Assembly (NCBI RefSeq): GCF_964355755.1
Contig: NC_092673.1
Span: forward strand, 26,595,648 to 26,659,647
DNA length: 64,000 nt
From: Antedon mediterranea
Lineage: Eukaryota; Animalia; Echinodermata
Reading direction: 5' to 3'
The translations under genes were made by a program, and so were the position numbers. The stretch's first letter is position 1, and each line of letters begins with the position of its first letter. This document shows positions 10,624 through 38,200 of this stretch, in pieces. The notes under the pieces are model-generated. The model did no database searches. It saw only the letters and a list, made by a program, of their open reading frames with translations, and had not been told where the DNA came from.

Positions 10624-11282
10624 TTCTTATCCACTTTATCCACTCTCTTTTCGTCAATCCACAAACATGTGTCGCGGTGGTCACGGTCACAGATAGATCT
10701 AAATTTGCTCAAACTCAATCAACCGTTACTTAACTTGAGGTATATTCTGAGTACGTAATATGTACCACAGTGCAGGTATATTATTCGGACCATCAAAATG
10801 AAGACAGGAACATGTTCATGGACATTGATTATTAACAACTTAGGGAGTTTTAAAGGAAGATTTGATTGGATAGTTTGAGGGAGAGCGTCATTTCGACGAT
10901 CGAGCATTCTCTACTCTCTATTTTTAGCATGTTAGAGCATGACGGATTAATGAATAAATAATATGATCAGAACTATGGAGCGCCAATCATTGTTTTGTCT
11001 AGTAACCTAAAGAAATTGCCTGTCGTACATGTTTACAACACTAAATGTTTAAAATTTCATTTCTTTAACTCTGACACTACAGGTTTCAAAATAAGATTTT
11101 TTATGTGGAAAGTCCTGCGTTGCAGTAAAAAGCCGATGGGATGGTAATTGTCTTTATCATTCAATATCCCGTATTTTTTTGTGTAATTATATTTTTCTAA
11201 TTAATAAAAGATTTTTTATTTTGTGTATGTACAGTACTTGTATCTGAATATTTGTTACTTGCAGCCAAGTATACCATCATTT

Positions 11283-12811
11283 TGAGTATATGGAACACAA
11301 TGCATTATACTGTAATAAGCAATGAGGCCGTTTTCCTATGTTAAAGCATTGTGTTCCTGTGGTATCATTTGGGTATATGGAACAAATGCATTATATATAA
11401 TGAATAAACCACAATACGAGGCCGTTTTCCTATGTTAAAGTATTGTGTTCCTGGGGTATCATTTTGGGTATATGGAACACAATGCATTATATATTCATTA
11501 TAACATAATGAATAAACCACTGTAGCAATGAGGCCGTTTTCCTATGTTAAAGTATTGTGTTCCTGGTGTATCATTTTGGGTATATGGAACACAATGCATT
11601 ATATAATTATAATGAATAAACCACTTCAATAAGCAATGAGACCGTTTTGCTATGTTATAGCATTGTGTTCCTGGGGTATCATTTTGGGTATATGGAACAC
11701 AATGCATTATATATGATGAATAAACCACTGTAATATGAGGCCGTTTTCCTATGTTAAAGCATTGTGTTCCTGGGGTATTATTTTGGGTATATATTCTTTA
11801 CTCCATGGTATATGGAACACAATGTATTATTTAAACCACTGTAATATGAGGCCGTTTTTCTATGTTAAAGCATTGTGTTCCTGGGGTATCATTTTGGGTA
11901 TATGGAACACAATGCATTATATAATTATAATGAATAAACCACTGTAATAAGCAATGAGGCCGTTTTCCTATGTTATAGCATTGTGTTCCTGGGGTATCAT
12001 TTTGGGTATATGGAACACAATGCATTATATATAATGAATAAACCACTGTAATATGAGGCCGTTTTCCTATGTTAAAGCATTGTGTTCCTGGGGTATCATT
12101 TTGGGTATATGGAACACAATGCATTATAGATAATATTACAGTGGTTTATTCATTATAATAATGCATTGTGTTCCATATACCCAACATAATACCCCAGGAA
12201 CACAATGCTTCAACATAGGAAAACGGCCTCATATTACAGTGGTTTATTCATCAATGCATTGTGTTCCATATACCCAAAATGATACTCCAGGAACACAATG
12301 CTTTAACATAGGAAAACGGCCTCATATTACAGTGGTTTATTCATCATAATAATGCATTGTGTTCCATATACCCAAAATGATACCCCAGGAACACAATGCT
12401 TTAACATAGGAAAACGGCCTCATATTACAGTGGTTTATTCATCATATATAATGCATTGTGTTCCATATACCCAAAATGATACCCCAGGAACACAATGCTT
12501 TAACATAGGAAAACGGCCTCATTGCTTATTACAGTAGCTTATTCATTATATATAATGCATTGTGTTCCATATACCCAAAATGATACCCCAGGAACACAAT
12601 ACTTTAACATAGGAAAACGGTCTCATTGTTTATTACAGTGGTGTATTCATTATATATAATGCATTGTGTTCCATATACCCAAAATGATACCCCAGGAACA
12701 CAATACTTTAACGAGGAAAACGGCCTCATTGCTTATTGAAGTGGTTTATTTATCATATAATGCATTGTGTTCCATATACCCAAAATGATACCCCAGGAAC
12801 ACAATACTTTA
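11283..12811. repeat. About 95-105-bp tandem repeat that switches orientation near 12130
   Basis: Unit AATAAACCACTGTAATATGAGGCCGTTTTCCTATGTTAAAGCATTGTGTTCCTGGGGTATCATTTTGGGTATATGGAACACAATGCATTAT runs to about 12127; its reverse complement runs from about 12133. Confidence 0.92.
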
Positions 12812-13006
12812 ATTTTGCTATGGTTAGGCCTACTTAATTTTACTTAATCTTTATTAATACAAATATATTGATTTCCAAAGTGGTTCACAAAAGTTCTACA
12901 AAACTAAATGAAAATGATACACATTAATAAAACGCAAATTCAAGAAATGTTTCTACACTTCATACAAAAGAAAACTTTTAGAGGAAATCATGGAAGTGAA
13001 TTGGAT

Positions 13007-13031
13007 CATGGAGGTATATTATACCTCCATG
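13007..13031. mobile_element. 25-bp hairpin with 7-bp TSD (probable P-type excision footprint)
   Basis: CATGGAGGTATATTATACCTCCATG flanked by ATTGGAT on both sides. Confidence 0.65.
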
Positions 13032-14168
13032 ATTGGATTAACACATCTACTTTGCAGAAAATGTAAACAAATAATACTGTAACTGAATTGATAAGCACTG
13101 ATCCCTTTAAACTTTACTATAAAACACTATCAATTACGAAGGGAAAAAAAACATGTTTCCACTACTTGATACTAGAGAGTAGAGAATGCTCGATTGTCGA
13201 AATGACGCTCTCCCTCAATATCCAATCACATCTTCCTTTAAAACTCCCTAAGTTGTTAATAATCAATGTCCATGAGCATGTTCATGTCTTCATTTTGATG
13301 GTCCGAATATAGCTCCACAGTGACGGTGGTATTATATAGACACTTATTTTAACAGCTTAGGAAGTTATAATTATGGCAACCAATTAAACTATTTTAATTA
13401 TTCACATGATTCGATACGTACGTACATGTGTTATTCTTTCGCAATTTGAATCCTTTATTTCATTATTTTTCTAACAATTGTTCCTCTATGATGATGAATG
13501 TTGAAACATTACTTTCAAGAAAATATTTACTGTACCTTCGAATTTCTAATAATCCCATAAAAGGCGTTTCATAGTTGATGGAAACTAGAATCCCTAAGCT
13601 GTTACAATTCATACACTGCAGCCATGATTATTGTGCACATTACGTACTCAAAATATACCTCGTTCTACCACTTCTATGCAAAACTTGTAACGGAAGAATG
13701 TACGTTATTAATCTAGGCCCTCTCACGGTGGTAAGTAGGGAGGTATGCACTGAGCGCGAAATTTGAGTAGTGTAAGTACCATGTTAACATGGACAAATTA
13801 TATTTTTATTGTTTTATTTGTCCTTGGTTTAAATTGGTATCCCAGGATACACAAATTAGTAAATGACAATATTTACAAATATTCTGTGTATGTATTTTAT
13901 TGTTCAAATTCACATGACTGCTTCTGAGGAATAACTGATTATGCCTACACAATACATCACCAATGCTCCCTTATATATACAAATTAGCAACTATCGATTT
14001 CATATAAAAAATGTAGTCTCATATAATAGATTTGCTTTCTAATAATTAATAAACAATAATCAGGCATATTGTAACCAATGCCCACTTGTATACCGTAAGT
14101 ATAGTCAAGACAATGTACAGTCCCATGTAGTGACTAGAGCCTGGATTTGAGTTATAGCACTGTCCACT

Positions 14169-15634: not shown

Positions 15635-16384
15635 AGGCCTACTAACAACTAGAAGCATTCACATTAATCATACGGTTCATACTCTGTATGTTACTTAAAC
15701 ATACTGCAATAAAAAAATAAAACAAATATTCTAATTTATAGTATAGGCTCTATAAATCGACCAAACCTGTTATTTCGGATTAAATATTTAAGTTTGACAT
15801 ATTTTTGTATTATGTTATAAAATTGTTATTGTAATTCTAATAATTATTTGTAGATATTTTGTATTTATATCAGGAACGTATTTGTAATGTAGTGTATATA
15901 TTCACAAATATCTGACATCATACACTCTGAACTGTACATTTTTTACCACTGTCGAATATATAATATTTGTCATTATTATGTCATTAACTAATGTTTATAG
16001 TATTGAATTCAATAATATTTTATAAGATTATAAACAAAATTATTAAAATATTTAAAAACAGTTGTTTTGTAGGCTATTGCATGTTGTTTTATACAACTAA
16101 AATGCATTAAATAAAATCATAATAGACAATGTAATAAATTCTTGGCCTACTGTAACTAGGAGATTAGATTCTCATGGAGTGTTTAATCCACTTTAAAAAA
16201 GCACCTCATCTATGTATCCCTGATCTCCTCTACAGATGGCACATTTTGTAGAAAAGCATCACTCAGTGTAATGCCCAATTTAGTACAAGACACTCCTGTG
16301 TTAGTTGAAAATCATCCTTTTGTATGACATCCCAATTGTCTAAAAACTCTCTTTAAAAGAGCTGATCCCTTGTGAGAGTCCTGC

Positions 16385-16830
16385 CCAATACAGTACACTG
16401 CTGTAAGTCAGAGGGCACCTCTATGTGTTCTACTCAATCCAATACAGTACACTGCTGTAAGTCAGAGGGCATCTCTATGTGTTCTACTCAATCCAATACA
16501 GTACACTGCTGTAAGTCAGAGGGCATCTCTATGTGTTCTAATCAATCCAATACAGTACACTGCTGTAAGTCAGAGGGCACCTCTTTGTGTTCTACTCAAT
16601 CCAATACAGTACACTGCTGTAAGTCAGAGGGCATCTCTTTGTGTTCTACCCAATCCAATACAGTACACTGCTGTAAGTCAGAGGGCATCTCTATGTGTTC
16701 TACCCAATCCAATACAGTACACTGCTGTATGTCAAAGGACATCTCTATGTGTTCTACTCAATCCAATACAGTACACTGCTGTTAGTTAGAGGACATCTCT
16801 TTGCATACTACTCAATCTAATACAGTAAAG
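16385..16830. repeat. 54-bp minisatellite, about 8 copies, in the probable GABBR1 3' UTR
   Basis: Unit CCAATACAGTACACTGCTGTAAGTCAGAGGGCATCTCTATGTGTTCTACTCAAT. Confidence 0.92.
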
Positions 16831-17211
16831 TATAAGTTGAAAAGTATCTACTTCCATGTGTACAATAAACTCTTTAGAGTTTGGACTGACACTTGATGGA
16901 TCGGCTAGAAGTTCTTGAACATGAGCAACTCCGAGGGAGTAACCCCACTTCTGCAAGTTGTCCTTTCTGAAGCTGAACACTGCAGCATCATTTCATCCAT
17001 TCTTTATAACTCTAATTGTTTATCTTTTACAAATGATGGATCTCCTTGTCGATCAAAAGTATTTTAGAAACATGTAGCTAACTTCCTTTCCTAATTGTCT
17101 GTGTAGTAACATTGTTAATCTAGCTTCATAAACCCAGCTGCAGCTGGCTGTGAATTCTTTCAATTGTTCTCCATCGAAATAAGAGTCAATTTACAAACAT
17201 AAAACGCAAAA

Positions 17212-20200
17212 TCACAAATATGTCTCTGAAAACTCTTCGTCTGAACCATGTGGTGCGTTAATTTTGACTCCTACATTGGTAACAACTGTCCCACTGTTTG
17301 TGTAAGTTGAAATAAAGGCACTATCTTCAAAAGATATTCGTCCTGGAGAAATTTTACCTGGTGCCAAACGGCTACTAGATGATCTAAACCGTGCTTGGCT
17401 CCTCTCTTCACTGTCTGCTAAAGTTTTTTCTCTTGTTTTCTTTTCAATACATTCCAGTAAATGTCGTATATGTGCTTCTTTCTTTAAAAACAAATCAACA
17501 ATTTGATTAAAAAAACAACTTTGTAAAACATTTCAAACTAATAAAGTTTCATATTGTTTGAAGGTTTGCATAGCGAAATCAAATGTTGATATAAAGTTTT
17601 TGGTATACCCCGTATATTATTTCTGAAAAAAACTATAGTATTGAGTTTCTCAACGTTTTAATCAATATGCTTTGATCGTCCTCAGAAAGTGGTTTTATTA
17701 TTTTTATACAGGTCAGGACATTTTCAGGACCTAAAAAAGTGTCCCTTATTGGCGTCCCCTGAAATGAAAAGATAAATATTAAATATTACCTCTGCTATCT
17801 GTCTTTTTATTCCTTCATTTTCCGAAGTTAACTTAATTTGTTTTTCTGTATCTTCTTTGGTGGGTAAATGTTGTAGATACGCTTTATTATATTCTCCAGA
17901 TGGGTTCTTCTTTAAGTAAAGAATCTGTCAAGAAAATTCAAATACAAAACATTTATGTAAACTAGTTAATTTTGAATGGCAGATGGATTAGTACAGCCAG
18001 CATTTAGCATTCTTGTAAGAATCAATTGTTTTGAATATTCCAATTCCATTTTTTTTGTACTGATGAAAATTCAATTACTGAGAGTCACATTAGATTAATT
18101 AATACGCAGAGACATCCATCTTTTAAAAATGTATTCAGTATAGACACTCCAAATGCCACAGAAGTTCTTATACTTATTACAACGCCCAAATTCCATCAAA
18201 ACTCTTGCACAAAAGTGAACACATTAGGCGCAGGAGCCCCGGATAGCGTTACGAAGTCGTTAACTCTGTCAGCCCATGGTCAACCCAACTAATGTGTTTT
18301 TCCCAAGGACAACTTATCAATAACTAAACTTTGTCACCACCCATAAGTGTGCTGTTCATTTCCTATTGACCAATGAACACCAATGTAACTGGACCTGAGT
18401 TTCTTGCTATTCGACCTTGGGTGCAAATTATACAATTAATTGATGTTAAGGCCACTGACTACTCTTTTCTGTATAGAAACACTGAATTGACTGAATAATA
18501 AGAAAACCCTACAATAATTTCTACTACTACTTGATATGGTGTTATACAAGAACTATATTAAAAGAATTGAATGTATGGAGAATGAAAAGTTAAACGTTAT
18601 AACTTATGTAAAACATCACTTAGATGATATCTATCAGATATATCATTTTCTAAAAATTGTTTCATTAGTTAAAATAGATCACGGAAAACCAATACCAATA
18701 CTGATCTGGACTCGGAAATTCAAAATGTAGCAGGCAACGTTTCACCAATGAAAACTTTCAAGACAAACAAAGTATCATAATTATCATGATATCCATTTTT
18801 ATTTAATAACGATAAATGGATATAAATATTTCGTCTTTTTTGTTATTTTGTGATGGAAAATATATTGAGTGAACATTGGCACTGAGTTTAAATGTTCCCC
18901 GTCCCCTTAATGTCCGCTTTATAGGAGTGTCCCCTCAGTAAAGATTTGCTGTTTTCCCATTTAATAATAAATTATGATGTCCATCTTATCCTCTCAATTT
19001 TAATGTGCTACACCCGATAATAGAATACACATCTAGCTCATGTGTACTTAAAGAACCTAGTACATCTTTCGAGACGAGTGGGGGGTTATCCCGGTGTATT
19101 AGTACATCACAGCCACTGATCACCAACTGGGCCCTCTGGGAGACCAGTCTTTGACTGAAGAGGTTACCCAGTATAAATATATATTCAATTCAATTCAATA
19201 GAATAACTGTACAGTAGGCTCCCATTTGATGCAATGTGTTACCCAATGTGCTCAATTTGATTGTGCTACCCAAATCCATGCTATCCATTTGAAATAATTT
19301 GCTATCCATTTGAAAGAATGTGCTACCCGATAATCCCTATAGAATAATGTACAGTACAATTATATCCATTTGATTGTGCTACCTAATGTGCTATCCATTT
19401 GAAAGAATGTGCTATCCATTTGAAAGAATGTGCTACCCGATAATCCGTATAAAATAATGTACAGTACTATATCCATTTGATTGTGCTACCTAATGTGCTA
19501 TCCATTTGAAAGAATGTGCTACCCGATAATCCTTATAGAATAATGTACAGTACTATATCCATTTGGCTGTGCTACCTAATGTGCTATCCATTTGAAAGAA
19601 TGTGCTACCCGATAATCCGTAGGCTATAGAATAATGTACAGTACAATTATATCCATTTGATTGTGCTACATAATGTGCTATCCATTTGAAATAATGTGCT
19701 ACCCGATAATCCTTATAGAATAATGTACAGTACTATATTCATTTGATTGTGCTACCCAATGTGCTATCCATTTGAAATAATGTGCTATCCATTTGAAATA
19801 ATATGCTATTTGAAAGAATGTGCTACCTGATAATCCGTATAGAATAATGTACAGTACAATTACATCCATTTGATTGTGCTACCTAATGTGCTATCCATTT
19901 GAAATAATGTGCTATCCATTTGAAAGAATGTGCTATCCATTTGAAAGAATGTGCTACCCGATAATCCGTATAGAATAATGTACAGTACAGTACTATATCC
20001 ATTTGATTGTGCTACCCAATGTGCTATCCATTTGAAAGAATGTGCTATCCATTTGAAAGAATGTGCTACCCGATAATCCGTATAAAATAATGTACAGTAC
20101 TATATCCATTTGATTGTGCTACCTAATGTGCTATCCATTTGAAAGAATGTGCTACCCGATAATCCTTATAGAATAATGTACAGTACTATATCCATTTGGC

Positions 20201-23200
20201 TGTGCTACCTAATGTGCTATCCATTTGAAATAATGTGCTACCCGATAATCCGTAGGCTATAGAATAATGTACAGTACAATTATATCCATTTGATTGTGCT
20301 ACCTAATGTGCTATCCATTTGAAATAATGTGCTACCCGATAATCCTTATAGAATAATGTACAGTACTATATCCATTTGATTGTGCTACCCAATGTGCTAT
20401 CCATTTGAAATAATGTGCTATCCATTTGAAATAATGTGCTATTTGAAAGAATGTGCTACCCGATAATCCGTATAGAATAATGTACAGTACAATTACATCC
20501 ATTTGATTGTGCTACCTAATGTGCTATCCATTTGAAATAATGTGCTATCCATTTGAAATAATGTGCTATCCATTTGAAAGAATGTGCTATCCATTTGAAA
20601 TAATTTTCTATCCATTTGAAAGAATGTGCTACCCGATAATCCGTATAGAATAATGTACAGTAGGCCTACTATATCCATTTGACTGTGCTACCTAATGTGC
20701 TATCAATTTGAAATAATGTGCTACCCGATAATCCTTATAGAATAATGTACAGTACTATATCTATTTGATTGTGCTACCCAATGTGCTATCCATTTGAAAT
20801 AATGTGCTATCCATTTTGAAATAATGTGCTATCCATTTGAAAGAATGTGCTATCCATTTGAAATAGGCCTAATGTGCTATCCATTTGAAAGAATGTGCTA
20901 CCCGATAATCATAGAATAATGTACAGTACTATATCCATTTGATTGTGCTACCTAATGTGCTATCCATTTGAAAGAATGTGCTATCCATTTGAAAGAATGT
21001 GCTATCCATTTGAAAGAATGTGCTACCCGATAATCCGTATAGAATGCACAGTACAGTTATATCATAGTTATATCCATTTGATTGAACTATCTATTGTGCT
21101 CATTAGGCGCAGGAGCCCCGGATAGCGTTACGAAGTCGTTAACTCTGTCAGCCCATGGTCAACCCAACTAATGTGTTTTTCCCAAGGACAACTTATCAAT
21201 AACTAAACTTTGTCACCACCCATAAGTGTGCTGTTCATTTCCTATTGACCAATGAACACCAATGTAACTGGACCTGAGTTTCTTGCTATTCGACCTTGGG
21301 TGCAAATTATACAATTAATTGATGTTAAGGCCACTGACTACTCTTTTCTGTATAGAAACACTGAATTGACTGAATAATAAGAAAACCCTACAATAAGTTC
21401 TACTACTACTTGATATGGTGTTATACAAGAACTATATTAAAAGTTAGATGATATCTATCAGATATCATTTTCTAAAAATTGTTTCATTAGTTAGAATAGA
21501 TCACGGAATACCAATACTGATCTGGACTCGGAAATTCAAAATGTAGCAGGCAACGTTTCACCAATGAAAACTTTCAAGACAAACAAAGTATCATAATTAT
21601 CATGATATCCATTTTTATTTAATAACGATAAATGGATATAAATATTTCGTCTTTTTTGTTATTTTGTGATGGAAAATATATTGAGTGAACATTGGCACTG
21701 AGCTTAAATATTCCCCGTCCCCTTAATGTCCGCTTTATAGGAGTGTCCCCTCAGTAAGGATTTGCTGTTTTGCCCCTTAATAATAAATTATGATGTCCAT
21801 CTTATCCTCTCAATTTTAATGTGCTACACCCGATAATAGAATACACATCTAACTCGTGTGTACTTTAGAGAACCTAGTACATCTTTCGAGACGAGTGGGG
21901 GGTTACCCCGGTGTATTATCACAGCCACTGATCACCAACTGGGCCCTCTGGGAGACCAGTCTTTGACTGAAGAGGTTACCCATTATAAATATATATTTCA
22001 ATTCAATAGAATAACTGTACAGTAGGCTCCCATTTGATGCAATGTGTTACCCAATGTGCTCAATTTGATTGTGCTACCCAAATCCATGCTATCCATTTGA
22101 AATAATTTGCTATCCATTTGAAAGAATGTGCTACCCGATAATCCGTATAGAATAATGTACAGTACAATTACATATATGCATTTGATTGTGCTACCTAATG
22201 TGCTATCCATTTGAAATAATGTGCTATCCATTTGAAAGAATGTGCTATCCATTTGAAAGAATGTGCTACCCGATAATCCGTATAGAATAATGTACAGTAC
22301 AGTACTATATCTATTTGATTGTGCTACCCAATGTGCTATCCATTTGAAAGAATGTGCTATCCATTTGAAAGAATGTGCTACCCGATAATCCGTATAGAAT
22401 AATGTATAGTACTATATCCATTTGATTGTGCTACCCAATGTGCTATCCATTTGAAAGAATGTGCTACCCGATAATCCGTATAGAATAATGTACAGTACTA
22501 TATCCATTTGATTGTGCTACCTAATGTGCTATCCATTTGAAAGAATGTGCTACCCGATAATCCTTATAGAATAATGTACAGTACTACAGTACTGACTACA
22601 TATCATATACCAAGCCCACACATTTTACACGGGTGTGAAAAACGCGTGACTCGCGTGTAATTAGGTACTAACAATACTGTCCATATTCACTCATGCATTA
22701 CTGCATTGAGTAATTCAACTGCAGCGAACTGTATTTATAATTTGTTGATGTTTTGTTCATACAGGTATATATTAAATTATCATCAAACAGACAATAACTG
22801 CAATTACAGTACAGGATAACAGCATTTTATATAACAAAATATAGGCCTATTTGAAATAAAAAATCGATTTATTTATCATAGTGCAATCATGGAGGTAAAA
22901 ACCTCCATGAATCATGATGCAATTATGCACTTGTCAATTGTATGACCCACTATACGACCCCCGGGAGAGGTGAGTCATTTGTCCGATGTGCGTCATACTT
23001 TTGAATACCATGACGCACCCGTGCGTCAAAAAGGTGACTTACCTTTGGGTGACCATGACGCACCCATTTTGACGCACTGTGACCATGTTGTTTATGATAT
23101 GGTGGGTGGTAAAGTGACGGACATTGACACACCTTGTTCATTGATGTGACGTACCATCTAGGTTTTTTGACGCACCCCTGCGTCAGTAATTATTTGTAAA

Positions 23201-26200
23201 TGACGCACCCATGACGCACCTCTCCCGGGGGTCGTATAGTGAGTCATACAATTGACAAGTGCATTAATATGTCTGTGATTGAAAATACTAGGCCTAGTTA
23301 GTAGGCCTACTACCGGGAGTACAGTACTGTACTACTATTCTAGGCCTAGTTTGCTTTCAGGGTTTGTTTATATATATTTTTAAGTCATATTTATTAAGTA
23401 TTTGAGAAAACTCATTAAAAAAAACAAGGTAGAAAAGACCCAACAATATCTTTCAAAACACGATCGTCGCCAGTGGCCGAATGACGTACTTTCTGTACGC
23501 ACCACGTTGTAGAGTTCACCCATTGAGTACACACAGTTGCTAAGCCAAATAATAACATAAAGGTTTTACCATTCCCCGTCGGGGAAGAAAACATTTATAT
23601 AGTATTACAACGCCAGTATTGACATGCATGTATTTAGCGCGGTAACTAATGTACACCCCTGTTACGGACTGGACCATTAATCGCTCCACGAAACCACGTT
23701 GGAGCGATCCTCCTCCGCACACAGCAGCCAGAGCGAGAGAGAAGTGAGGTCGAATAAATACAAGTTTTTACCATTTCCCGTCCAGGGGAAATCAGTTCTC
23801 TTATAATTACAGCCCTGATACCGTGCGCATATGTTTACGTTGATATTATTTAATTGCACACCTCATTTTGGACTGTACCATTTTCGGAACCTTGTTTTGT
23901 TTTCATTATAAACATGGCCTGATGTCAGACAAATATCTGCTTTAAACGTCAATTTAGCAACTTATTAAGTCGTTTCATAAGCAGAGAATTTATAAAGCAA
24001 GTATACAATGCAGACATGTTAGATAGAAATATACTAAAAGACATTTAATAAACGTGTTAGAAGAACGTAATAATTTGACTTTCTACCGAGCGGCGGAAAA
24101 CCCATTCACAGTCACAGTTATTTGAGCGAACACTGTACTTGGCCTAAAACACTAGCTCTGTATTTTAATTTAAATATTTGGCTTACGGTTACAAAAATAC
24201 AAGGAAACATCATTTTATAATTTTACTATTATTAGGCTATTTATTGACCTATTAAAAATCGCTAAATATGTTTTTTTTGTGGGGGGCTTAGGTACAGTAG
24301 CTCTCTATTCTAGCCTCCCTGTTGAACACTTCTCGCTGTACGCATAAAATAATACGACGTGAACTCTAAACAAAATCCCGATGAAAAACAATTTACATGA
24401 ATTCTATAAACTTTCTTATTTATTGTTTGCCTAAACAATAGAGAAAAAATAAACTTTGTTTTGCATACAGTAACGGGCGGGTTCAGATCTGATTACATAA
24501 ATATGATGGTAGGCCTAAACAATAGAAACAAAACAAACTGATACCCACGTGTGTGTTGTCGCGGGCGTCGTACCGGGAGTTCCATATTTTACCAGTAAAA
24601 AGCTACAAAGTGATGACGTCATGGTCCACACGGCAAATACAGGCACGCGGCAATTACACATATTTTACACGCGCGACAAACGCGGGTTATGGTACATGAT
24701 TTGTAGTCAGTACTGTATATCCATTTGACTGTGCTACCTAATGTGCTATCCATTTGAAAGAATGTGCTACCCGATAATCCGTATAGAATAATGTACAGTA
24801 CAGTACTATATCCATTTGATTGTGCTACCCAATGTGCTATCCATTTGAAAGAATGTGCTATCCATTTGAAAGAATGTGCTACCCGATAATCCGTATAGAA
24901 TAATGTACAGTACTATATCCATTTGACTGTGCTACCTAATGTGCTATCCATTTGAAATAATGTGCTACCCGATAATCCTTATAGAATAATGTACAGTACT
25001 ATATCCATTTGACTGTGCTACCTAATGTGCTATCCATTTGAAAGAATGTGCTACCCGATAATCCTTATAGAATAATGTACAGTACTATATCTATTTGACT
25101 GTGCTACCTAATGTGCTATCCATTTGAAAGAATGTGCTACCCGATAATCCGTAGGCTATAGAATAATGTACAGTACTATATCCGTTTGATTGTGCTACCT
25201 AAATGTGCTATCCATTTGAAATAATGTGCTACCCGATAATCCTTATAGAATAATGTACAGTACTATATCCATTTGATTGTGCTACCCAATGTGCTATCCA
25301 TTTGAAATAATGTGCTATCCATTTGAAATAATGTGCTATTTGAAAGAATGTGCTACCCGATAATCCGTATAGAATATTGTACAGTACAATTACATCCATT
25401 TGATTGTGCTACCTAATGTGCTATCCATTTGAAATAATGTGCTATCCATTTGAAATAATGTGCTATCCATTTGAAAGAATGTGCTATCCATTTGAAATAA
25501 TTTGCTATCCATTTGAAAGAATGTGCTATCCATTTGAAAGAATGTGCTACCCGATAATCCGTATAGAATAATGTACAGTACAGTACTATATCTATTTGAT
25601 TGTGCTACCCAATGTGCTATCCATTTGAAAGAATGTGCTATCCATTTGAAAGAATGTGCTACCCGATAATCCGTATAGAATAATGTACAGTACTATATCC
25701 ATTTGATTGTGCTACCTAATGTGCTATCCATTTGAAAGAATGTGCTACCCGATAATCCTTATAGAATAATGAACAGTACTATATCCATTTGACTGTGCTA
25801 CCTAATGTGCTATCCATTTGAAAGAATGTGCTACCCGATAATCCGTATAGAATAATGTACAGTACAGTACTATATCCATTTGATTGTGCTACCCAATGTG
25901 CTATCCATTTGAAAGAATGTGCTATCCATTTGAAAGAATGTGCTACCCGATAATCCGTATAGAATAATGTACAGTACTATATCCATTTGATTGTGCTACC
26001 TAATGTGCTATCCATTTGAAAGAATGTGCTACCCGATAATCCTTATAGAATAATGTACAGTACTATATCCATTTGACTGTGCTACCTAATGTGCTATCCA
26101 TTTGAAAGAATGTGCTATCCATTTGAAAGAATGTGCTACCCGATAATCCGTAGGCTATAGAATAATGTACAGTACTATATCCGTTTGATTGTGCTACCTA

Positions 26201-29200
26201 AAATGTGCTATCCATTTGAAAGAATGTGCTACCCGATAATCCTTATAGAATAATGTACAGTACTATATCCATTTGACTGTGCTACCTAAATGTGCTATCC
26301 ATTTGAAATAATGTGCTACCCGATAATCCTTATAGAATAATGTACAGTACTATATCCATTTGATTGTGCTACCCAATGTGCTATCCATTTGAAATAATGT
26401 GCTACCCGATAATCTTTATAGAATAATGTACAGTACTATATCCATTTGACTGTGCTACCTAATGTTCTATCCATTTGAAAGAATGTGCTACCCGATAATC
26501 CTTATAGAATAATGTACAGTACTATATCCATTTGACTGTGCTACCTAATGTGCTATCCATTTGAAATAATGTGCTACCCGATAATCCTTATAGAATAATG
26601 TACAGTACTATATCCATTTGATTGTGCTACCCAATGTGCTATCCATTTGAAATAATGTGCTATCCATTTAAAATAATGTGCTATTTGAAAGAATGTGCTA
26701 CCCGATAATCCGTATAGAATATTGTACAGTACAATTACATCCATTTGATTGTGCTACCTAATGTGCTATCCATTTGAAATAATGTGCTATCCATTTGAAA
26801 TAATGTGCTATCCATTTGAAAGAATGTGCTATCCATTTGAAATAATTTGCTATCCATTTGAAAGAATGTGCTACCCGATAATCCGTATAGAATAATGTAC
26901 AGTACTATATACATTTGACTGTGCTACCTAATGTGCTATCCATTTGAAATAATGTGCTACCCGATAATCCTTATAGAATAATGTACAGTACTATATCTAT
27001 TTGATTGTGCTACCCAATGTGCTATCCATTTGAAATAATGTGCTATCCATTTGAAATAATGTGCTATCCATTTGAAAGAATGTGCTATCCATTTGAAATA
27101 GGCCTAATGTGCTATCCATTTGAAAGAATGTGCTACCCGATAATCATAGAATAATGTACAGTACTATATCCATTTGATTTTGCTACCTAATGTGCTATCC
27201 ATTTGAAATAATGTGCTATCCATTTGAAAGAATGTGCTATCCATTTGAAAGAATGTGCTACCCGATAATCCGTATAGAATGCACAGTACAAGTTATATCA
27301 TAGTTATATCCATTTGATTGAGCTATCTATTGTGCTATCCGTTTGAACTAATGTGCTGTCTGTTTGAAATAATTCAGGGTTTTTTTTTTAAATATGTTTT
27401 GCTATCCATTTTAAACGTGCTAAACAAGTTACATATTTGTTGATATAAATTTGCGGTACACCACGTAGGCCTATATTAGTTCTGAAAAGAACTGTTGAGT
27501 TGCTTGACGTTTCGATTTAGGCCTACTCCAAAGTCAAAGTCTCCAAAGCTATTCCATCATGTCGTATTCGGGGAATCGCCCACAAGTGTTTTCTCAGAGA
27601 AGGGTATGTTCTGTATGGGGTTCTGTATGCTATTTTTTAATAATGTACAAAAAATGAAATGAAAAATCATATTAATTATCGGTATGTACGGAGGAAGCTC
27701 GAACAACACGAAGCGCGAAACAAATAAAAGCGCAGCGCGAAACATCTGAAATGATATACAATTTCTCAAAACATGAAAACACAGAATATATTATATTAAT
27801 ATAACTTTTTAATATTTCCAAAGGCTCGGACAAGGAAGAAGGGCCTTAAAAAACTGAATTGCTATATGTTAGGCCACATTTCCATAACTTTTCAAAACTC
27901 ATCGAACCCTCTGCTAGTAGGCCTAATTAATATAGGAGCGTATCGCCAAATCATTAGAGAAAAAAAAACATGGCATGAAGATGTAATTAATCAAACAACG
28001 GCCAAAGAATACCAACAATTTTAATTTAGGTTTCGATTCGTAATTACTAATGTGGTGGACTAAGCCTAGTTTGAAACTATAGTGACCATTTATTTTAGAA
28101 AGAAAGATAGACAAATTTGTTTCCATCTCTATGTTATTGTTAATACCAAGGCACTTTTCAATTAAAAATTCTGGCCTAGTATTCTTGCAAGGTCGTCACA
28201 GCTCCAGTTACAAAGGTCGTCACAGCTCCAGTTACAAACGGTGATACAAAGTGTCAATCATTTGACCAGTGAACAGCCCACTGGTAGGATAGTCCTTGAA
28301 ACCGTCCGTAAAACACATTAATCACTCACATCAGTCATGCCGCTAATGGTTGAAAACCTCACTTTTTGGGGTTTTCAAACGTAACGCTATCCGGGGCTCC
28401 TGCGCCTAATGTATCCGTTTGAACTAATGTGCTGTCTGTTTGAAATAATTCAGGTTTTTTTTAAAATATGTTTTGCTATCCATTTTAAACGTGCTAAACA
28501 AATTACATATTTGTTGATATAAATTTGCGGTACACCACGTAGGCCTATATTAGTTCTGAAAAGAACTGTTGAGTTGCTTGACGTTTCGATTTAGGCCTAC
28601 TCCAAAGTCAAAGTCTCCAAAGCTATTCCATCATGTCGTATTCGGGGAATCGCCCACAAGTGTTTTCTCAGAGAAGGGTATGTTCTGTATGGGGTTCTGT
28701 ATGCTATTTGTTAATAATATACAAAAAATGAAATGAAAAATCATATTAATTATCGGTATGTACGGAGGAAGCTCGAACAAGACGAAGCGCGAAACAAATA
28801 AAAGCGCAGCGCGAAACATCTGAAATGATATACAATTTCTCAAAACATGAAAACACAGAATATATTATATTAATATAACTTTTTAATATTTCCAAAGGCT
28901 CGGACAAGGAAGAAGGGCCTTAAAAAACTGAATTGCTATATGTTAGACCACATTTCCATAACTTTTCAAAACTCATCGAACCCTCTGCTAGTAGGCCTAA
29001 TTAATATAGGAGCGTATCGCCAAATCATTAGAGGAAAAAAAACATGGCATGAAGATGTAATTAATCAAACAACGGCCAAAGAATACCAACAATTTTAATT
29101 TAGGTTTCGATTCGTAATTACTAATGTGGTGGACTAAGCCTAGTTTGAAACTATAGTGACCATTTATTATAGAAAGAAAGATAGACAAATTTGTTTCCAT

Positions 29201-32200
29201 CTCCATGTTATTGTTAATACCAAGGTACTTTTCAATTAAAAATTCTGGCCTAGTATTCTTGCAAGGTCGTCACAGCTCCAGTTACAAAGGTCGTCACAGC
29301 TCCAGTTACAAACGGGGATACAAAGTGTCAATCATTTGACCAGTGAACAGCCCACTGGTAGGATAGTCCTTGAAACCGTCCGTAAAACACATTAATCACT
29401 CACATCAGTCATGCCGCTAATGGTTGAAAACCTCACTTTTTGGGGTTTTCAAACGTAACGCTATCCGGGGCTCCTGCGCCTAATGAAGTTTGGTTATAGG
29501 AGAATGGTTTTAAGGATGAAGAATGTAATGAAAGTAATTTTTCTATTTTTTGCAGCGATAGTTGATGTTAAAAACTTCAAAATTTTACAAGAAAAAACAG
29601 TAGACTTCCTTTTTTAAGGGGACACTCTCAACAAAGTATTAATAAATAGGGGTCGGCAATAGTGTATATATAATGTAATAGATATTATATTTCAGATATA
29701 TACATACCTTTGGTGCAAAAATGACACATAGAAATTGGAACTAAAATAAAAAGGAGATACTCCTACAATAGGGTCTATTATTTGATTGCACTTAAATTGT
29801 TTGACCTAAAAATCCAATTAAAACGTAGCAGACATTACCTTTGGCACAAAAATGACACCTAGGGTTATAGCACAGCAGATGATGATTGAAAATGACACAA
29901 ATCCAAACATAGCATTTGGCTGCGTCCTGATAAATGATGTGACAGATGCTGTGATTATGCACAGAACCTGGAAATAGAAAAGATAACCATTATAATATGA
30001 CAAGGATGAGTAGAGGATGATTATGTTGATGATAATAACAGTGATGTTGGTTGACGAAAGGGATGATGATGATATCTACAGTAGATATAGTTTACTCTTT
30101 AACATGTTAGTGCAATTAATTGAAGACATTAAACATTTTTTATTAAACTGTAAATGATGAACTCTGATTATGACACATGGAATCGTTACACAACAGCAAG
30201 TGCTGATGATAAATTACAGTATATTTTAGGTGGAGATTCTATCGCGATTTGTAAAGAATCTGAGACCTTTTTTGATTTGTTTTGTAAACAATACACAAGA
30301 GCTGCATGGGAGAAACGGTCAGAACTTAAATCTCCCAATATATAGATTGTTTTTCTTTTGTATTGTTGCTTTTATATATGATTTGTAAATATTATACACC
30401 TGTGATAACAACTATAGGTCTTCAGTACCTGATGTTGAAACACAATGGTTTGTATTGTAAACTCTTTACTATATTTTATGTTTATTTTTATATACCTTTT
30501 AAAATTATCAACTCAAACCTATGATACTGTAGGGCAATTTAATACAGTACCTGTATTACCATGTTGATAATGATTTTTCTTTTATATTTTTGCAAATAGT
30601 TTAAGAACCTGTATCCGTCATATAATGTGTTGTTTTGATGTATTATGTTAAATTGGATGCACCACTTCTGTGTGTGCCACCGATGCAAAGGTGTCATTTC
30701 CTAATAAATTATTATTATTATTATTATTTAGCAAAAATAATGTTTAAAAATGTAGTTACTGCAGTAACTGCAGTAAACAATATTGATCCCTAATAGTTAC
30801 TGCAGTAACTGCAGTAAACAATATTGATCCCTAATAATTAATCAGAACACCTACCACCACATTGTATATTGCCATTGCAATATATTTGGAGTCATTAATA
30901 TCTCTTACAGCCATGTTACGAGTCTCATAGGCAAGAAATATACCAAAGAGTAGAAGAAGGCCATTCATAGTATACAATGTACCTGCAAATAAATCAACAA
31001 TGTATGGTTACAAACATGGATAATTTAGGTTAATGCTGTGGTATGACGCTGCCAAAAGATTGTGATTCATCAACTGTACACTTTCTTTGGACAAAAAGAA
31101 AAGAGTGTTCAAGTAACCTCAACACCCCTTCTACTTATATATACTGTAGTGGTCCTACCAAGTTTTGCCTAATGTTAAAACTTTAAAAAAAAATTTTTTT
31201 TTTCTTCAAAAAGTCATGATTATAAGCAAGAATTTTTGTTCTGATTATTTCTTTTTTTTTGCCCAAAATAAAAACGAACAGGATAATACCTCTCTAAATC
31301 CTAAACCCAATACATTCCTCCAAACACCTACAATACAGGAAAAAGGTGACGGTAAGTGAAAAAACGCATAGCTTGTCCCACGTACTAGAATATATGTATC
31401 CTAAACAGAGACTGCCCAGCTGCTCTATGTTTTGTGTACAGTAAATGGCCAAGAGGAATAACATAGTTTTTTTTTTAGTTTTTTTTTATATTTTATTTCA
31501 TCATCACCCTACAGTGACCAAACGTCACCATTAACAGGGTTGAAAGTCGTAAAATATAACATATTATATACAAGCAAAAATCAACAGATAACAAGACAAC
31601 ATTTAAATATTACTGACATTAGACAAAACTTTGTGATGGAAACAAGCAAGGGAATCAAAAAAATATCAACACATCCATCAATTTTACATAGTGAGTGGTA
31701 TAACTTTAGGCAAACGATTAACAAAACCATTTTTAGTAATATTTACCCTCCCTCTTGATATAGAAAATAAAGCAGGATTACTTTACTATTACCTTTACCG
31801 CTTGTCTGTGTTAATTAGCCTTTAATAGAAAATAATAGATGTGGTACATACCTAACCAAATTTTCAGTGAGTCTGATTCACACATCTCTAATACTTGAGT
31901 AATTTTTTCATCTGTTTTTATATTTTCTTCAGGTTCAAAGCTGGTAGGTTCTAGTTTGAGTGGATCAATCACTTGCCAGGCAATAAGAACAATAACATCT
32001 ATAAGAACCTTGACGCATATTAATGCATATATTTTCCATGTTGGTACTACCTGTAAGGATACAAAAATGAGCTTTAATCAATTTAATTGTACACTAAGAA
32101 AATTCACTCTGGACCATGACACCTATCACACATCTGTAAGGATACAAAAATGAGCTTTAATCAATTTAATTGTATACTAAGAAAATTCACTCTGGACCAT

Positions 32201-35200
32201 GACACCTATCACACATCTGTAAGGATACAAAAACAATGTTAAAATCAATTTAATTGTATACTGAGAAAATTAACTTTTTAAGTCCACCTATCACACATGT
32301 ACCTTTAAGGATAGAAACATGAGGTTAAATCAATTTAATTTAAAAAGGAAATTCACTTTTTATGTCCTCTAGATCATGACATCTATCACACATGTACCTG
32401 TAAGGATACAAAAATGAGGTTAAATAAATCTTCAATTTAATTGTATTCCAAGGAAATTCAAGTCCTCTTAGGCCACAACAAACTAGTGCAAATGTGGGCA
32501 AATTGGGACTTGTTTGAGCTTGGTTCCCACTAAGATGTAACGCAAGAACATAGGTCGCAAATTTAAGCGAATTGACCAATCACAAGCAACAGTCATGGCT
32601 TTTGGTTGGTCAATTCGCTTACATTGTGTCCTTTGCATCTTTCAGCTCCAGATTTGAGGCTGAAAAGTATGCATGATCTAATCTAGCATAGATATACAGT
32701 ATTGTAATATTAAATATAAATCCCCAACAAACAAGAAACATATATAACAGTTCATTTGTAACATTGTGAGAGTTATTAAAAATAACAAAACTGTGTCATA
32801 CAATGATTATATGAGTTCTGATTTTTAAATTATGAATATGTCTCTAAAAAAGTGATAATTTACCTCTACGCTAACTTTCCTTCTTTTTGTCTTGTCATCT
32901 TTAACATTTTTCTCTTTTGTGATTAATTGATGAACCATCCAAATTTTCCCAAAAAGGGCACCATAAGCAAGACTGAAGCCGATACTAAGTAACCAAGTCG
33001 TGCTCTGTCAAAATATGTGAATAAATGATGTTAATGACACCTGGATAATTTAGTATATACAGGAAAAGTTAAGCTCTACCTACACTATCAAACTTTATGT
33101 GATGACCATCACAACCATATTTGAGAACATCACACTTTTTTTTCAAACTAGTTTGATAGTGTAGACAGAGCTTTAATGACACCTGGTAAACACCTACAAA
33201 ATTAAATAATGATAATTATTGACACCTAGATAAGCAGGTTCATACACACCTGACATACTCTAGGAACTTGAACGCTGTTCTCCAAGTACTGTTTATCCAA
33301 TCCAAATAAAAAAACACATATTAGACATAAGATGCAGCCAAGCACCATAATGTTGTTGACACCAGCCTGAGAACATTCCAAATATCTGTAAAAAATAAAT
33401 ATAAGATTTAATATGTAAAGATGTATTTTTCTCCAAAAAACAAAACAATGTTTTTACTTATAAAAAAACAAAATAAACTGTAAAATTCAACCAAAACCCA
33501 TAAAATTTACAGTCAATTTTACTATATTTTTGCTCTAAGTTTTTCAGGTAAATAATTGTTTTTTTCTATCCAATTTTTGGTCAAATTAAATAACTATTAT
33601 GTCATATTAAAATTGCATATAACAAAAACATTTTTTTTTCATGGGGACAATACGTCTCTAAAAGGAGTTTACTATGTCACTTATAAGAAAAGTGATTATG
33701 GTGATCTGTCGACTCTACCTTGTAAAAGGTAAAAACTGTTAAAAAATATCTTACTGTGTATGACTGTAAAGTATGTTAAAAACCAGGAATGAAAATGCAA
33801 ATGCAATAACTAAACTGCACAGTAAAGAAACTGGTATATAAAGAGTTTTGCTTATGAATAGATGCTCAGTGATCTCCTGAACTCCATCATTAGGCACCTT
33901 GCCACCTGAAATTAATAACAACAATTGGTATAAACAGTTGATGTTCAGTGTTTTATTCAATCATTCTAATCATACACTAATATTAAAACATATACTATCC
34001 ATAGATAAATATATTTTGTCTACTTCAAGTTTCTGGTTAAACGTATGAATATACATCAAATATTTAAATATTATTTAAAAGGCAGCAATCAGGTAGTTAG
34101 CCTACAGACAGCATACCTTTAGGTTCATAATCCACACTAGCTTAAGGGTTCTCGCAGGGACAATTTGTTATTCAGGGGAAATCCTTGTTAAGATGACACA
34201 CACTCTGTTGTGTCCCAAAAGTGTCCCCTTAATAGTGGTTCTACTGTATTACAATAGTAACAAGTGCTCGTTGAAAACTCTCTTACCTGGCCAAGTTGCC
34301 TTTCCATGAATCCAGGTCAGATTGTCTTGGTCAATGTCATAATAAGCAGTTTTTACATATGTACCATCTAAAAATGATTTAAAAAAAAAATTATAAACAT
34401 ATTTTTATCTTTCTAACTACAAAAGTTGTTGAAAAACTGAAAATGTCATTAAATATTATCAAATGTCATGTATCATATGGCAATATACAAATAACAAATT
34501 GATGCACACACATGCTTGAAGATTATAGAAAAGAATAAAACAACATAGTAATACCATTTGAAGGGTTCTAAATCAAAATGAAAAGTGATATCTCAATAGT
34601 TGTGGCTTATTTTAAAACTATGGATGCATAAAGCAGTCCATTGAACCGGAACATCAGGCCAAAATCAAATGTTAGCTGTCAAGATATTATATAGTTTAAA
34701 TCCTGGAAACAAAGCTTGTGCCCGTCAATAGATTTTACACGTGTTTATGTCAAAATGTGAAATTTATATATTGTTGTTTTTCTTGTTGAGAAACTAATTG
34801 AGTCAGGTTTTTGTATATATTTATGAGAGAGATAAATGAAAACATTATAAACTTATGTAAGGTTTTTAAAACAATTTACAATTATCTACTGTAAAAATAT
34901 TTTAAGTTTACATATTTGTTGTTGTACTGTATGTTTTTGAAGCCTCGTCCTTCGAATGAGACGTTAATGTGTTTGAAAACAGGAGTGATGTTCCATATTT
35001 TTCTTTTTTTATTTCATTTTAAAAATTTGTTTATTTGTTCATTTATTTTTGTATGTATTTTTGTATTAATTTTTTTTTTTCAATTATTTTTTAAGAGTGC
35101 TTGTCACCAAAAATCAGACATATTCGTAATTTAGTGGCAAGGGTCAAAATTTCGAATTGGCTCATATTTTGCACATTGGTAGACCTTGATGTAAGTAAAC

Positions 35201-38200
35201 CTGATGTGTAGTTTGTTTGGTAAAATATCGCTTAGTTTTCGAGAAAATCGAAAAATAACGATTTTCGGCCAATTTTGTTAATTTTTGGTGTATAATTTAC
35301 ATTAAGTTTAACAGCCTCTGGAAGCCAAATGTAGCAACCTAGCATTTTAATATTTTACACTGACGTTAACTAGCACCTTGACAATAATTTAGTAAAGTTT
35401 CAAAAAATTTAATGAAATTCTAATATTTTTACTAATTAATTACTAATTAGCATATATAAAACTCTTAAAAAGTAGGGTAAAAACAAACGCGTTTTTTTTC
35501 ATGTGCGACGAATTTTTTTTTAATAAAAAAATCGTCAATCTACTGTTTAGATACTAAAATTTATGAATCAAGTAAAAACAATTTGGGGAAACTATTTTCC
35601 GCTCCGCGCCAGAGCCACAGCGTTGTAAGAAATTCAAAGATTTTATCTGTCGGCAAGATCAATCAGATGTACCTATTGTTCTCTATTTACAGATTTAAGG
35701 TAAATTTTACCATGAGAAACAAACTTTAAAGGTAAACTGAAAGGTCCTGAATAATTTGGAATTACGTTTTAATATAAAAACATCTAAAAATAAATTTCTA
35801 GTCAAATTTAAACGACTAACCCATGAAATTAAGCAATTACTATCTGAGCTCAACATTGTAAGTCGCTTAGCTTCATCAACTGTTATGTTTTCCACTGATG
35901 AATTTATTCTTATTATTATTATAATAATATAATACTAATAATATTATTATTTTTTGCACTATACGCGCGCATGCGCAGTTTATTTTTATCAACAAAGTGT
36001 TCCATTTGACGTGCGCGTATACGCGAAAATGTTTGATTTGCGTGAATAATTTCGCCTAGTGGAAAACAGGCTATATAACATAATGTTCTTATCTTCTCAT
36101 ATAGGGAGTATTCGCACGAGCATGTTAACGCTATTTTCCAAGCTCCGCCCACTTTGTAAACAACTTTCTGTGCGTGCGCAAGCATTACGAAAAACTTTAG
36201 TTACGTGCGTCGAGAACCTTATTTCTGAAAAATAGCGTAAATGAAAACGTTAACCAAAACATGATTAAACATGCCTGGCTAGGCTTAGTCTCTATAAACC
36301 CAAGGTATTCCATGATTTGTTTTAATACGTGTGGCGTATGTTGCGTGCGCTACACATGCGTTGCGTTTTACACTTCCCGTCGAAGCGCGAAATCAAAACG
36401 AGCAAGTACGTTAACGCAAATGTTCACTGAACTCTGTTGTTATGCAAATGAGTAGAATGGTGACATCCGATAACGTTCATGTGCTCGTGCGAAATTTCCT
36501 AATAATTCGTAGCCTAAACAATAAATTATTGTTTTTAAACTTGTAAACCATTGTTTCATCCCTTCGCTTTATTAAAAATTAACAGAACGCGACTTTAAAT
36601 ACTGACAATTTAGACAACAGAATCGTCCCACATATTAAATTGTTATTTTAAAGAATTCTTACAGACATAGTTTTACCTTCATTGCTACCTTAATCAATCG
36701 AGCAACTGCACATGGAAACCAGCTTTCCCAGCAAATCAATGTTTGGCTTCTTGCACTTTATGGTTCGTCATCATCATCATCATGAACGGCTGCATCTGTC
36801 CTCCTTTTTTTAGCCAAGTGTGAGAAAAAACAATCTGCTGTGCTGTTAAAAATTCAGTCTTGCTAAATAGATGTGAACTGGCCGATCTCATCTCTCGTGA
36901 GACATCACATGGACCAGCTTTCTGTCCCGTCTGCTCTCCAGCGTCAAAAACATCAATAAGGTAGGTTTTACAGAAAATCGGGTTTTTTTTGCAGAGGACT
37001 TTAACGCCCAGCCCATTTGCAGTTTGGGGCCAATGTCAAACCGTGGCAAATCGTTGGTTCTTGTTGGTTCTGGATTTTTAGAAGTACCCTCTTCTAGTTG
37101 TGTTGCGTATAATTTCATTGCCCTGTCATAAATGTTCTAGTGCGTTCTTGTGATTTTCATAATCTAAGTGTTTCTCTAGGGAAGAGTACCTCTGATATTA
37201 CCTAATGCAACCTTGTTCGCGACAAAAGTACAGTTTGCTGGGGGTGCCAGGACTTTCTTCACTTTCTATTTGTTCGTCGTCATTTATATCAGCTTGTTCT
37301 TCATGAGATGTCTTGGCTTGTATTCTTGCTTTTACTGCAATAAATGATACTTGATTTATTTTAATCAGACGTTGTATCTTGGTTATGAATTAAATTGGGT
37401 AGCTTCGAGGGCACACAGAATTTACTCAAAAGTAGATTTTGTCCTGCACCAATACCATACGCCATCCACACCTTCATGGACCTGCTTCCATACTCTATGT
37501 TGTTGATGTGACTCACGCCTTTCCATTTCCCTGCTGCACAAATAGTACCACTCACTATCGATGCCCGTAAACCTAAACATGTATCTGTGTGCAGCGATTT
37601 CCTTCTGGCATGCTTGTAAAGCTAGGACTTCAGTGCTCTGTTTGCGGTCTTTTCTATCGAATCCACAAGCTCCGCCGACAACCGATTTAAAAGAACATGA
37701 AATCTCTATTTTGTTTGAACTTAAAACCATCAGACAATAATTATATATAAGAATTATTTTCAACACGTCTTTACATTGTAAGACATAAACTAAAATGGAT
37801 AACAAATCTGTTCCGTTGTCAACGTCAATGAAGATATCGTTATCTATCGAATATACGCAGTAAAGTGTTTTGTCTACTGTGGTTAATGTTTTGAAACATT
37901 CTCGTTGAGTAAGATCGACCAGGTTCGACAAACAGGAAAACGATAACAAGTTAAAACAATTTTTTTTTCAGTTTTATCCGAGAGGATGGAATAATTTATA
38001 ATAATGTGGTTTGACAAAAAATAAGGGAGTGATTTTTAGTTAATTGCTTAATTTCGTATATTGGTTAGTAATTGAAATTTTACCAGAAACGTATTTTTAG
38101 TTTGTGTTTAAATTGCAACTTAATTCAAAATTTATCTTTCAAGTTTGTTTCTCCTAATAAAAGTTTGGCTTAAAGCGACTTAGATTGCTAAATAGAGAAC

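Follow-up and report, generated by a model that had tools for sequence, protein, structure and literature searches.

The window considered here is a stretch of 64,000 nucleotides (64 kb) of the genome of the echinoderm Antedon mediterranea (assembly GCF_964355755.1, contig NC_092673.1, positions 26,595,648 to 26,659,647 of the forward strand), and all coordinates given below are counted from its first letter. It is AT-rich (GC content of 0.28–0.38 per 2 kb) and contains spliced genes, and it harbors a transposable element into which a second copy of the same family has inserted. The ends of the element are 32-bp terminal inverted repeats (TIRs) with four exact matches in the window, two on each strand; in both pairs the terminal inverted match extends no further than base 32, with 32/32 identical positions in the outer and in the inner copy, and a search of the window with a 20-mer, allowing up to three mismatches, found no fifth copy. 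From left to right, the nested structure consists of the left arm of the outer copy, a satellite, the complete inner copy and the right arm of the outer copy, which alone would measure 3,952 bp, and the satellite array of the element runs in a single direction. Self-nesting and a satellite cargo are ordinary features. Given its TIRs, a target site duplication (TSD) that can be read against empty sites, its dispersed flanks and the fact that no transposase gene was detected in it, the element is a non-autonomous TIR DNA transposon. Its parts and insertion sites are the following:

18221: left-hand A of the pair produced by the outer insertion (the empty allele has a single A)
18222..18253, plus strand: left TIR of the outer copy, 32 bp, exact match
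18222..21100, plus strand: left part of the outer copy, an arm of about 1 kb followed by the satellite array; position 21100 holds the T that is duplicated, on the left side of the inner insertion
18290..18445, plus strand: subterminal region of degenerate inverted similarity to the right arm, judged by alignment score against shuffles
19211..21098, plus strand: internal satellite of the outer copy, with a 21-bp subunit and higher-order units of about 86 bp and longer
21101..28411, plus strand: complete inner copy of 7,311 bp, or 5,180 bp if the passenger is subtracted
21101..21132, plus strand: left TIR of the inner copy, exact match
22019..27373, plus strand: internal satellite of the inner copy, the array being interrupted by the passenger
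27331..27341, plus strand: unoccupied form of the inner site within the window, with a single T at 27336
28380..28411, minus strand: right TIR of the inner copy, exact match
28412: duplicated T of the inner insertion, right copy (left copy at 21100)
28413..29485, plus strand: right arm of the outer copy
29454..29485, minus strand: right TIR of the outer copy, exact match
29486: right-hand A of the pair produced by the outer insertion (the empty allele has a single A)

Target duplication at the two insertion sites

The length of a TSD corresponds to the spacing of the two cuts made by the transposase, and it is a main key for classifying elements that carry no gene. TSDs of one base are usually suspect, since chance or an error in placing the boundary is enough to produce one matching base. 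In this locus, both insertions can be compared with an unoccupied form of the site. The inner empty site differs from the flanks of the filled site by one unrelated substitution, 14 bases upstream of the junction, and the junction itself fits a model with a 1-bp duplication and not one with 0 bp; the corresponding satellite motif occurs in the element 79 times in its single-T form and never in a double-T form.

The unoccupied form of the outer site comes from public sequencing runs. Eight runs were listed, of which four had more than 80% of the words, all of these from one sample; runs X2–X4, with a share of 0.07–0.13, were left out of the results. A 681-nt contig of run X5 tracks the left flank as far as 18221 and then continues with 29 letters that equal positions 29487–29515 of the window; in this contig a single A takes the place of the A, element and A of the window. 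This empty allele was found in one of the three runs examined, X8 and X1 being without coverage of the flank. When four runs were compared, a contig of X6 was seen to end exactly at 18221 and a contig of X7 to extend 26 letters into the TIR, and because of these two contigs the filled and the empty outer alleles both appear to occur in the sample.

The boundaries themselves leave little room for another register. At both sites, direct repeats at the edges of the TIRs are no longer than one base, and when both ends are shifted inward by one to four bases the sole repeat is the AT of the TIR itself at a shift of three, which is absent from the empty sites. The duplication is thus 1 bp at the two of two sites that have an empty form, and the base differs between them (A in the outer, T in the inner). 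Since there are two empty sites and their bases differ, a boundary error is excluded and a match by chance is unlikely. The bases around the duplicated one in the empty sites are C-A-A (outer) and C-T-A (inner); the Y-W-R target motif at which they hint was dropped, given that the consensus of loose ends has an A before the flanking A and that other flank letters exist.

These sites bear on three other explanations. According to the first, the element would belong to a known superfamily with a 2- or 3-bp TSD whose boundary has been misread, as could happen with a CWG target if the element were read as G...C. NuwaI does use CWG (PMC4482050), and three of the zebrafish repeat families named DNA-1-x are filed under PIF-Harbinger (PMC9341512) and might themselves have been misread in this way. 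The empty sites permit no longer direct repeat in the registers tested, which contradicts this proposal at both sites and makes it very unlikely. According to the second, insertion would be blunt, as in Spy elements, which make no TSD (PMC4482050), and an extra base carried or gained by the element would have matched the target twice by chance. Such a target-independent base would match twice with a probability of 0.078 (window composition, the two sites paired), a figure that speaks for the proposal to that extent; against it, the matches occur at both sites and with different bases, and the AAATTT target of Spy is present at neither empty site, so that we regard it as decidedly improbable. 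The third proposal is a derivative of a Helentron (Helitron type 2), in which a terminal T and insertion before a T would mimic the duplication of one base. Elements of this kind carry a T at their 5' end and are inserted 5' of a T (PMC8969392), and the inner site does read T..T, but the outer copy, in the same orientation, reads A..A, and the inverted repeats of the element are exactly terminal and symmetric instead of asymmetric; this option is extremely unlikely.

The two sites are good evidence for a 1-bp duplication. Because of the chance of a double match just given, they are not a proof for the family as a whole.

Copies of the family and what they carry

The depth of read contigs suggests that the family has tens of near-identical copies. 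In X5, X6 and X7, three runs of one sample, contigs of the left arm have 36–74 times the depth of the flank, a ratio that is not a copy number, and in X5 the TIR contig reaches a depth of 3950 against 21.9 for the flank. The base immediately 5' of the TIR varies, being A at a depth of 1100 of those 3950 in X5, while two contigs of X8 with a letter other than A have depths of 750 and 600 of 4450; taken together, there are at least three different flank letters and several distinct flanks in the read contigs. Contigs of X5 and X8 at window position 18230 include one of 1,432 nt in which the start of the TIR has diverged and which likely stems from an older copy or a relative of the family. Run X1, which bears another organism label and comes from another study, contains the TIR, much of the left arm (with 2 differences from the window in 262 letters and 13 in 290) and the very beginning of the right arm, and gave no coverage of the window flank; judging from these matches, the family is also present in a second organism.

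Aligned with each other, the left arms of the outer and inner copies have 954 matches, 13 substitutions and 6 indels, and the right arms 1063 matches, 11 substitutions and 1 indel. At 18672, 18887, 18942, 18959 and 18960 the majority of the runs has the letter of the inner copy and yet does not have its 55-nt deletion. Because each copy has private changes and the majority shares letters of the inner copy without that deletion, the two copies appear to derive, independently and recently, from one family sequence. A local self-duplication of the outer copy is rejected on account of the private changes.

Such independent derivation also argues against the nesting being an assembly artefact of a repeat-rich region. 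With about 7 kb of satellite sequence and four arms of 1 kb in two pairs, the locus is of a kind in which an artefact could arise. Nevertheless, the arms differ by 24 substitutions and 7 indels in total, and the inner junctions are reciprocal and joined without overlap, a configuration that a mis-join through shared sequence would not be expected to make, and we therefore consider an artefact highly improbable. The original prediction, made from the window alone, had proposed a self-nested TIR element with a 1-bp target duplication and recent activity. The four exact TIRs and the nested layout in the assembly bear out the nesting; the duplication holds at the two of two sites that have an empty form, with the outer empty allele as new evidence; and the recent activity agrees with the presence of that allele in the same sample and with an arm divergence of about 1%.

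With regard to coding content, the element has 64 frames of at least 45 amino acids, the longest of which fall in the satellite. When the non-satellite frames were compared with Pfam, taking one per pair of arms, none of 22 reached the cut-off (best E 0.0023), although spliced relics are possible, and no Rfam match was obtained. Inward of the TIRs, the arms share a subterminal similarity of about 150 bp with a local alignment score of 61, whereas mononucleotide shuffles of the region, which was picked by eye, gave a mean of 31.5 (standard deviation 5.5) and none of 500 reached 61. This region (18290..18445) would likely be where the transposase binds, and in having subterminal repeats the element resembles the CMC families. 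Scans of metagenomes with 27 and with 20 bases of the TIR gave no loci; a scan of viral contigs with 18 bases gave five, which were rejected as chance matches, with one shared GC-rich context and no blastn match to the element at E 0.01.

Three further repeats are carried inside the copies:

19023..19150: fragment of a separate and far more abundant repeat in the left arm of the outer copy, recognized by read-contig depth
22587..24715: passenger element of 2,129 bp within the inner copy, with imperfect inverted ends beginning CAGT and TA on each side
22926..23263: inverted-repeat element of 338 bp within the passenger, with TTA on each side

From its end signature the passenger, which the original prediction had not mentioned, is presumably Tc1/mariner-like, and we take the 338-bp element to be a Harbinger- or Zator-like miniature inverted-repeat element. 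The abundant repeat piece has a summed depth of 1e5–1e6, compared with about 1e3 in the remaining arm (X5 and X6), and reaches at least the edge of the stretch compared with the read contigs; it has a counterpart near 21840–21960, so that the left arms of both copies carry it. The end of another dispersed repeat has nine matches in the window (231, 15614, 33154, 42276, 52368, 58952, 59095, 59232 and 63596), and in one contig of X8 this end adjoins the 32-bp TIR, where another copy of the element has probably inserted.

Host gene and neighboring repeats

The element likely lies in an intron of a GABA-B receptor gene, to judge from two exons that border it:

29839..29967, minus strand: exon of the host, a GABA-B receptor-like gene, for the final transmembrane part; it matches GABA-B receptor chains at E 1.5e-6 and precedes the intron in which the element lies
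17790..17924, minus strand: likely next exon of the same gene, its membership being suggested by AG and GT bounds and the same phase

Another exon of the gene is found at 42741–43001 (E 2.4e-21), and without the insertion the host intron would measure about 650 bp. A different intron of this gene contains a 3.7-kb element (35091–38779) with inverted arms of about 750 bp, TTAA bounds and ends GAG..CTC, which has short minus-strand open frames at 36100–37967 with no Pfam match above the cut-off; by its signatures we assume it to be Sola3- or Kolobok-like.

Other repeats of the window include a long-armed inverted-repeat element at 9558–10452 with GCCTAG on each side, of an unassigned family with a 6-bp TSD, an inverted-repeat element at 43147–44042 that has TTA on each side if its ends are moved outward by one base, and a foldback-like element at 10782–13309 with inverted ends of about 140 bp around two opposed arrays of a unit of about 100 bp. 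Tandem arrays occupy 45169–47000 (37-bp units, a strongly skewed stretch) and 16277–16924 (54-bp units). At 7971–8948, on the minus strand, an uninterrupted frame of 325 amino acids encodes a mitochondrial carrier (Pfam Mito_carr, E 7.4e-57), apparently intronless in a genome rich in introns.

Known systems and the probable enzyme

It has been stated that TIRs together with a duplication taken from the target are the signature of DDE transposases, and a 2026 review gives their TSDs as 1 to 10 bp but does not say which group makes those of 1 bp (PMC13565253). The element is probably a young, gene-less DNA transposon whose 1-bp duplication would be made by a DDE-type transposase supplied in trans that cuts its target with a stagger of one base. 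In such a scheme, the transposase would bind the TIRs and the subterminal motifs and excise the element, and its two active sites would attack the target strands one base apart; host repair would then fill the two one-base gaps and leave the base doubled. An independent member of the family would later have inserted into the final satellite unit of a copy that by then occupied the intron, and the satellite and the passengers would be carried as cargo.

By the length of the stagger, the nearest superfamily candidates are PHIS (0, 2 and 3 bp) and CMC (2–4 bp). The PHIS group (Spy, ISL2EU, PIF/Harbinger, Pangu, NuwaI and NuwaII) consists of DDE elements which, like this one, have TIRs; unlike it, they have fixed target motifs where the element has a varying flank base, and no 1-bp group is described among them (PMC4482050). 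The TIRs of PIF/Harbinger usually begin with A or G (PMC4482050) and those of the element with CAT, and neither the 3-bp TWA or CWG duplication of PIF/Harbinger and NuwaI nor the absence of a TSD and the AAATTT target of Spy is found here. The CMC group (CACTA/EnSpm, Mirage and Chapaev) shares with the element ends that begin with CA and differs in its TSD, which varies from 2 to 4 bp (PMC4482050) and is 1 bp in the element.

Duplications of one base are not new to catalogs. Repbase groups elements without genes by TSD length and by their first 11 bases (PMC4455052, section 5), and in the rows consulted of a zebrafish repeat table (PMC9341512, supplement file 2) eight families are named DNA-1-x, five of them unclassified (DNA-1-2, -5, -6, -8 and -11_DR) and three placed in PIF-Harbinger; the sea urchin families DNA-1-1_SP and DNA-1-2_SP are also unclassified. 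A placement of such families in Crypton-V is not borne out by the table, where none of the eight zebrafish families is filed under that name. The same rows assign DNA-2-x families mostly to CMC-EnSpm or TcMar, DNA-3-x to PIF-Harbinger or Zator and DNA-8-x mostly to hAT. Because the first number tracks the TSD length established for the superfamily to which a family is assigned, DNA-1-x would denote families with a 1-bp TSD. Compared by names and lengths, these families and the element are alike as DNA transposons without a superfamily and, if the names are so understood, with a 1-bp TSD; they differ in that the DNA-1-x families measure 148–1,561 bp in the rows seen and the element 4–5 kb with an internal satellite, and in that the TSD of the element is demonstrated by empty sites, whereas theirs is read from names. 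The element is thus a real and young representative of a catalogued but unexplained kind. No paper on a DNA transposon with a 1-bp TSD was found in the literature searched, a search outside whose scope most subscription papers and Repbase reports fall.

The original prediction had suggested either an unclassified family or a Crypton-like element, and had placed 1 bp outside the range of the common DDE superfamilies. The first suggestion fits what was found. The last was overstated in view of the 1–10 bp of the review (PMC13565253), the 0, 2 and 3 bp spanned by PHIS and the existence of catalogued DNA-1-x families. As for the Crypton option, an element of the Crypton or CryptonV kind would use a tyrosine recombinase and move via a circle, the repeated base being the crossover point. 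Cryptons do resemble the element in having a very short direct repeat at their ends (PMC3212892), repeats are reported as the targets of CryptonV families (PMC8869645), as would suit an inner copy that lies in satellite, TIRs exist in some Starship elements (PMC13465315), and the literature searches did not yield a named DDE superfamily with a 1-bp TSD. Nonetheless, the Cryptons described have no TIRs and have direct repeats of 4–6 bp, or in the animal groups no terminal repeats (PMC3212892), the spacers of the recombinases are 6–8 bp (PMC3212892; PMC13465315), and the repeats of Cryptons are alike across copies (PMC8969392), while the element has perfect TIRs, a 1-bp repeat that differs between its sites (A and T) and no detected recombinase gene. 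Furthermore, by reasoning from the sequence, a 7-bp overlap reaching into the tips of the TIRs would need chimeric overlaps at both junctions. By the features tested the element is not a Crypton, the suggestion of one is not supported, and a tyrosine recombinase of any such type is unlikely.

A chemistry that is neither that of DDE enzymes nor that of tyrosine recombinases has also to be considered, for instance an enzyme resembling serine recombinases with a one-base overlap. The enzyme itself has not been seen, and five of the eight zebrafish DNA-1-x families are without a superfamily, which leaves space for such a proposal. It has no positive evidence, and the IS607-type elements of serine recombinases end in GG and have neither TIRs nor a TSD (PMC13565253); we give it little chance.

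Several points weigh against a DDE transposase acting with a one-base stagger. Some concern the duplication: besides the possible double match by chance, the outer empty allele is known from a single contig in a single run, the sample that supplied it may be the source of the assembly, and the allele could be a product of excision; on the element side of the outer left junction the X7 contig covers no more than 26 letters, and the inner junctions are known from the assembly only. Others concern the enzyme, whose class is deduced, as no transposase gene was detected in the element, which lacks any long open reading frame and gave no Pfam match above the cut-off among the 22 frames compared; nor did the literature searches, within the scope stated above, yield a named superfamily with a 1-bp TSD. 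Finally, the start CAT is unlike the usual A or G of PIF/Harbinger and also differs from CAC, the start of CMC elements.

Within the reading that favors a DDE-type transposase, it is possible, and we advance it tentatively, that the enzyme represents a lineage outside the described superfamilies, with a one-base stagger and little sequence preference, that is still active in the genome of Antedon mediterranea. If this were true, its gene would be expected in the assembly, enclosed by the 32-bp ends seen here. Because the family is young and segregating, the enzyme can probably still be found in this genome, and finding it would make it testable which transposase leaves a duplication of 1 bp. 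On a more speculative note, an enzyme whose insertions each add a single base would make an interesting tool for near-scarless integration. For the family and its possible relatives, the gene would give an enzyme to the orphan families with 1-bp TSDs of fish and sea urchin.

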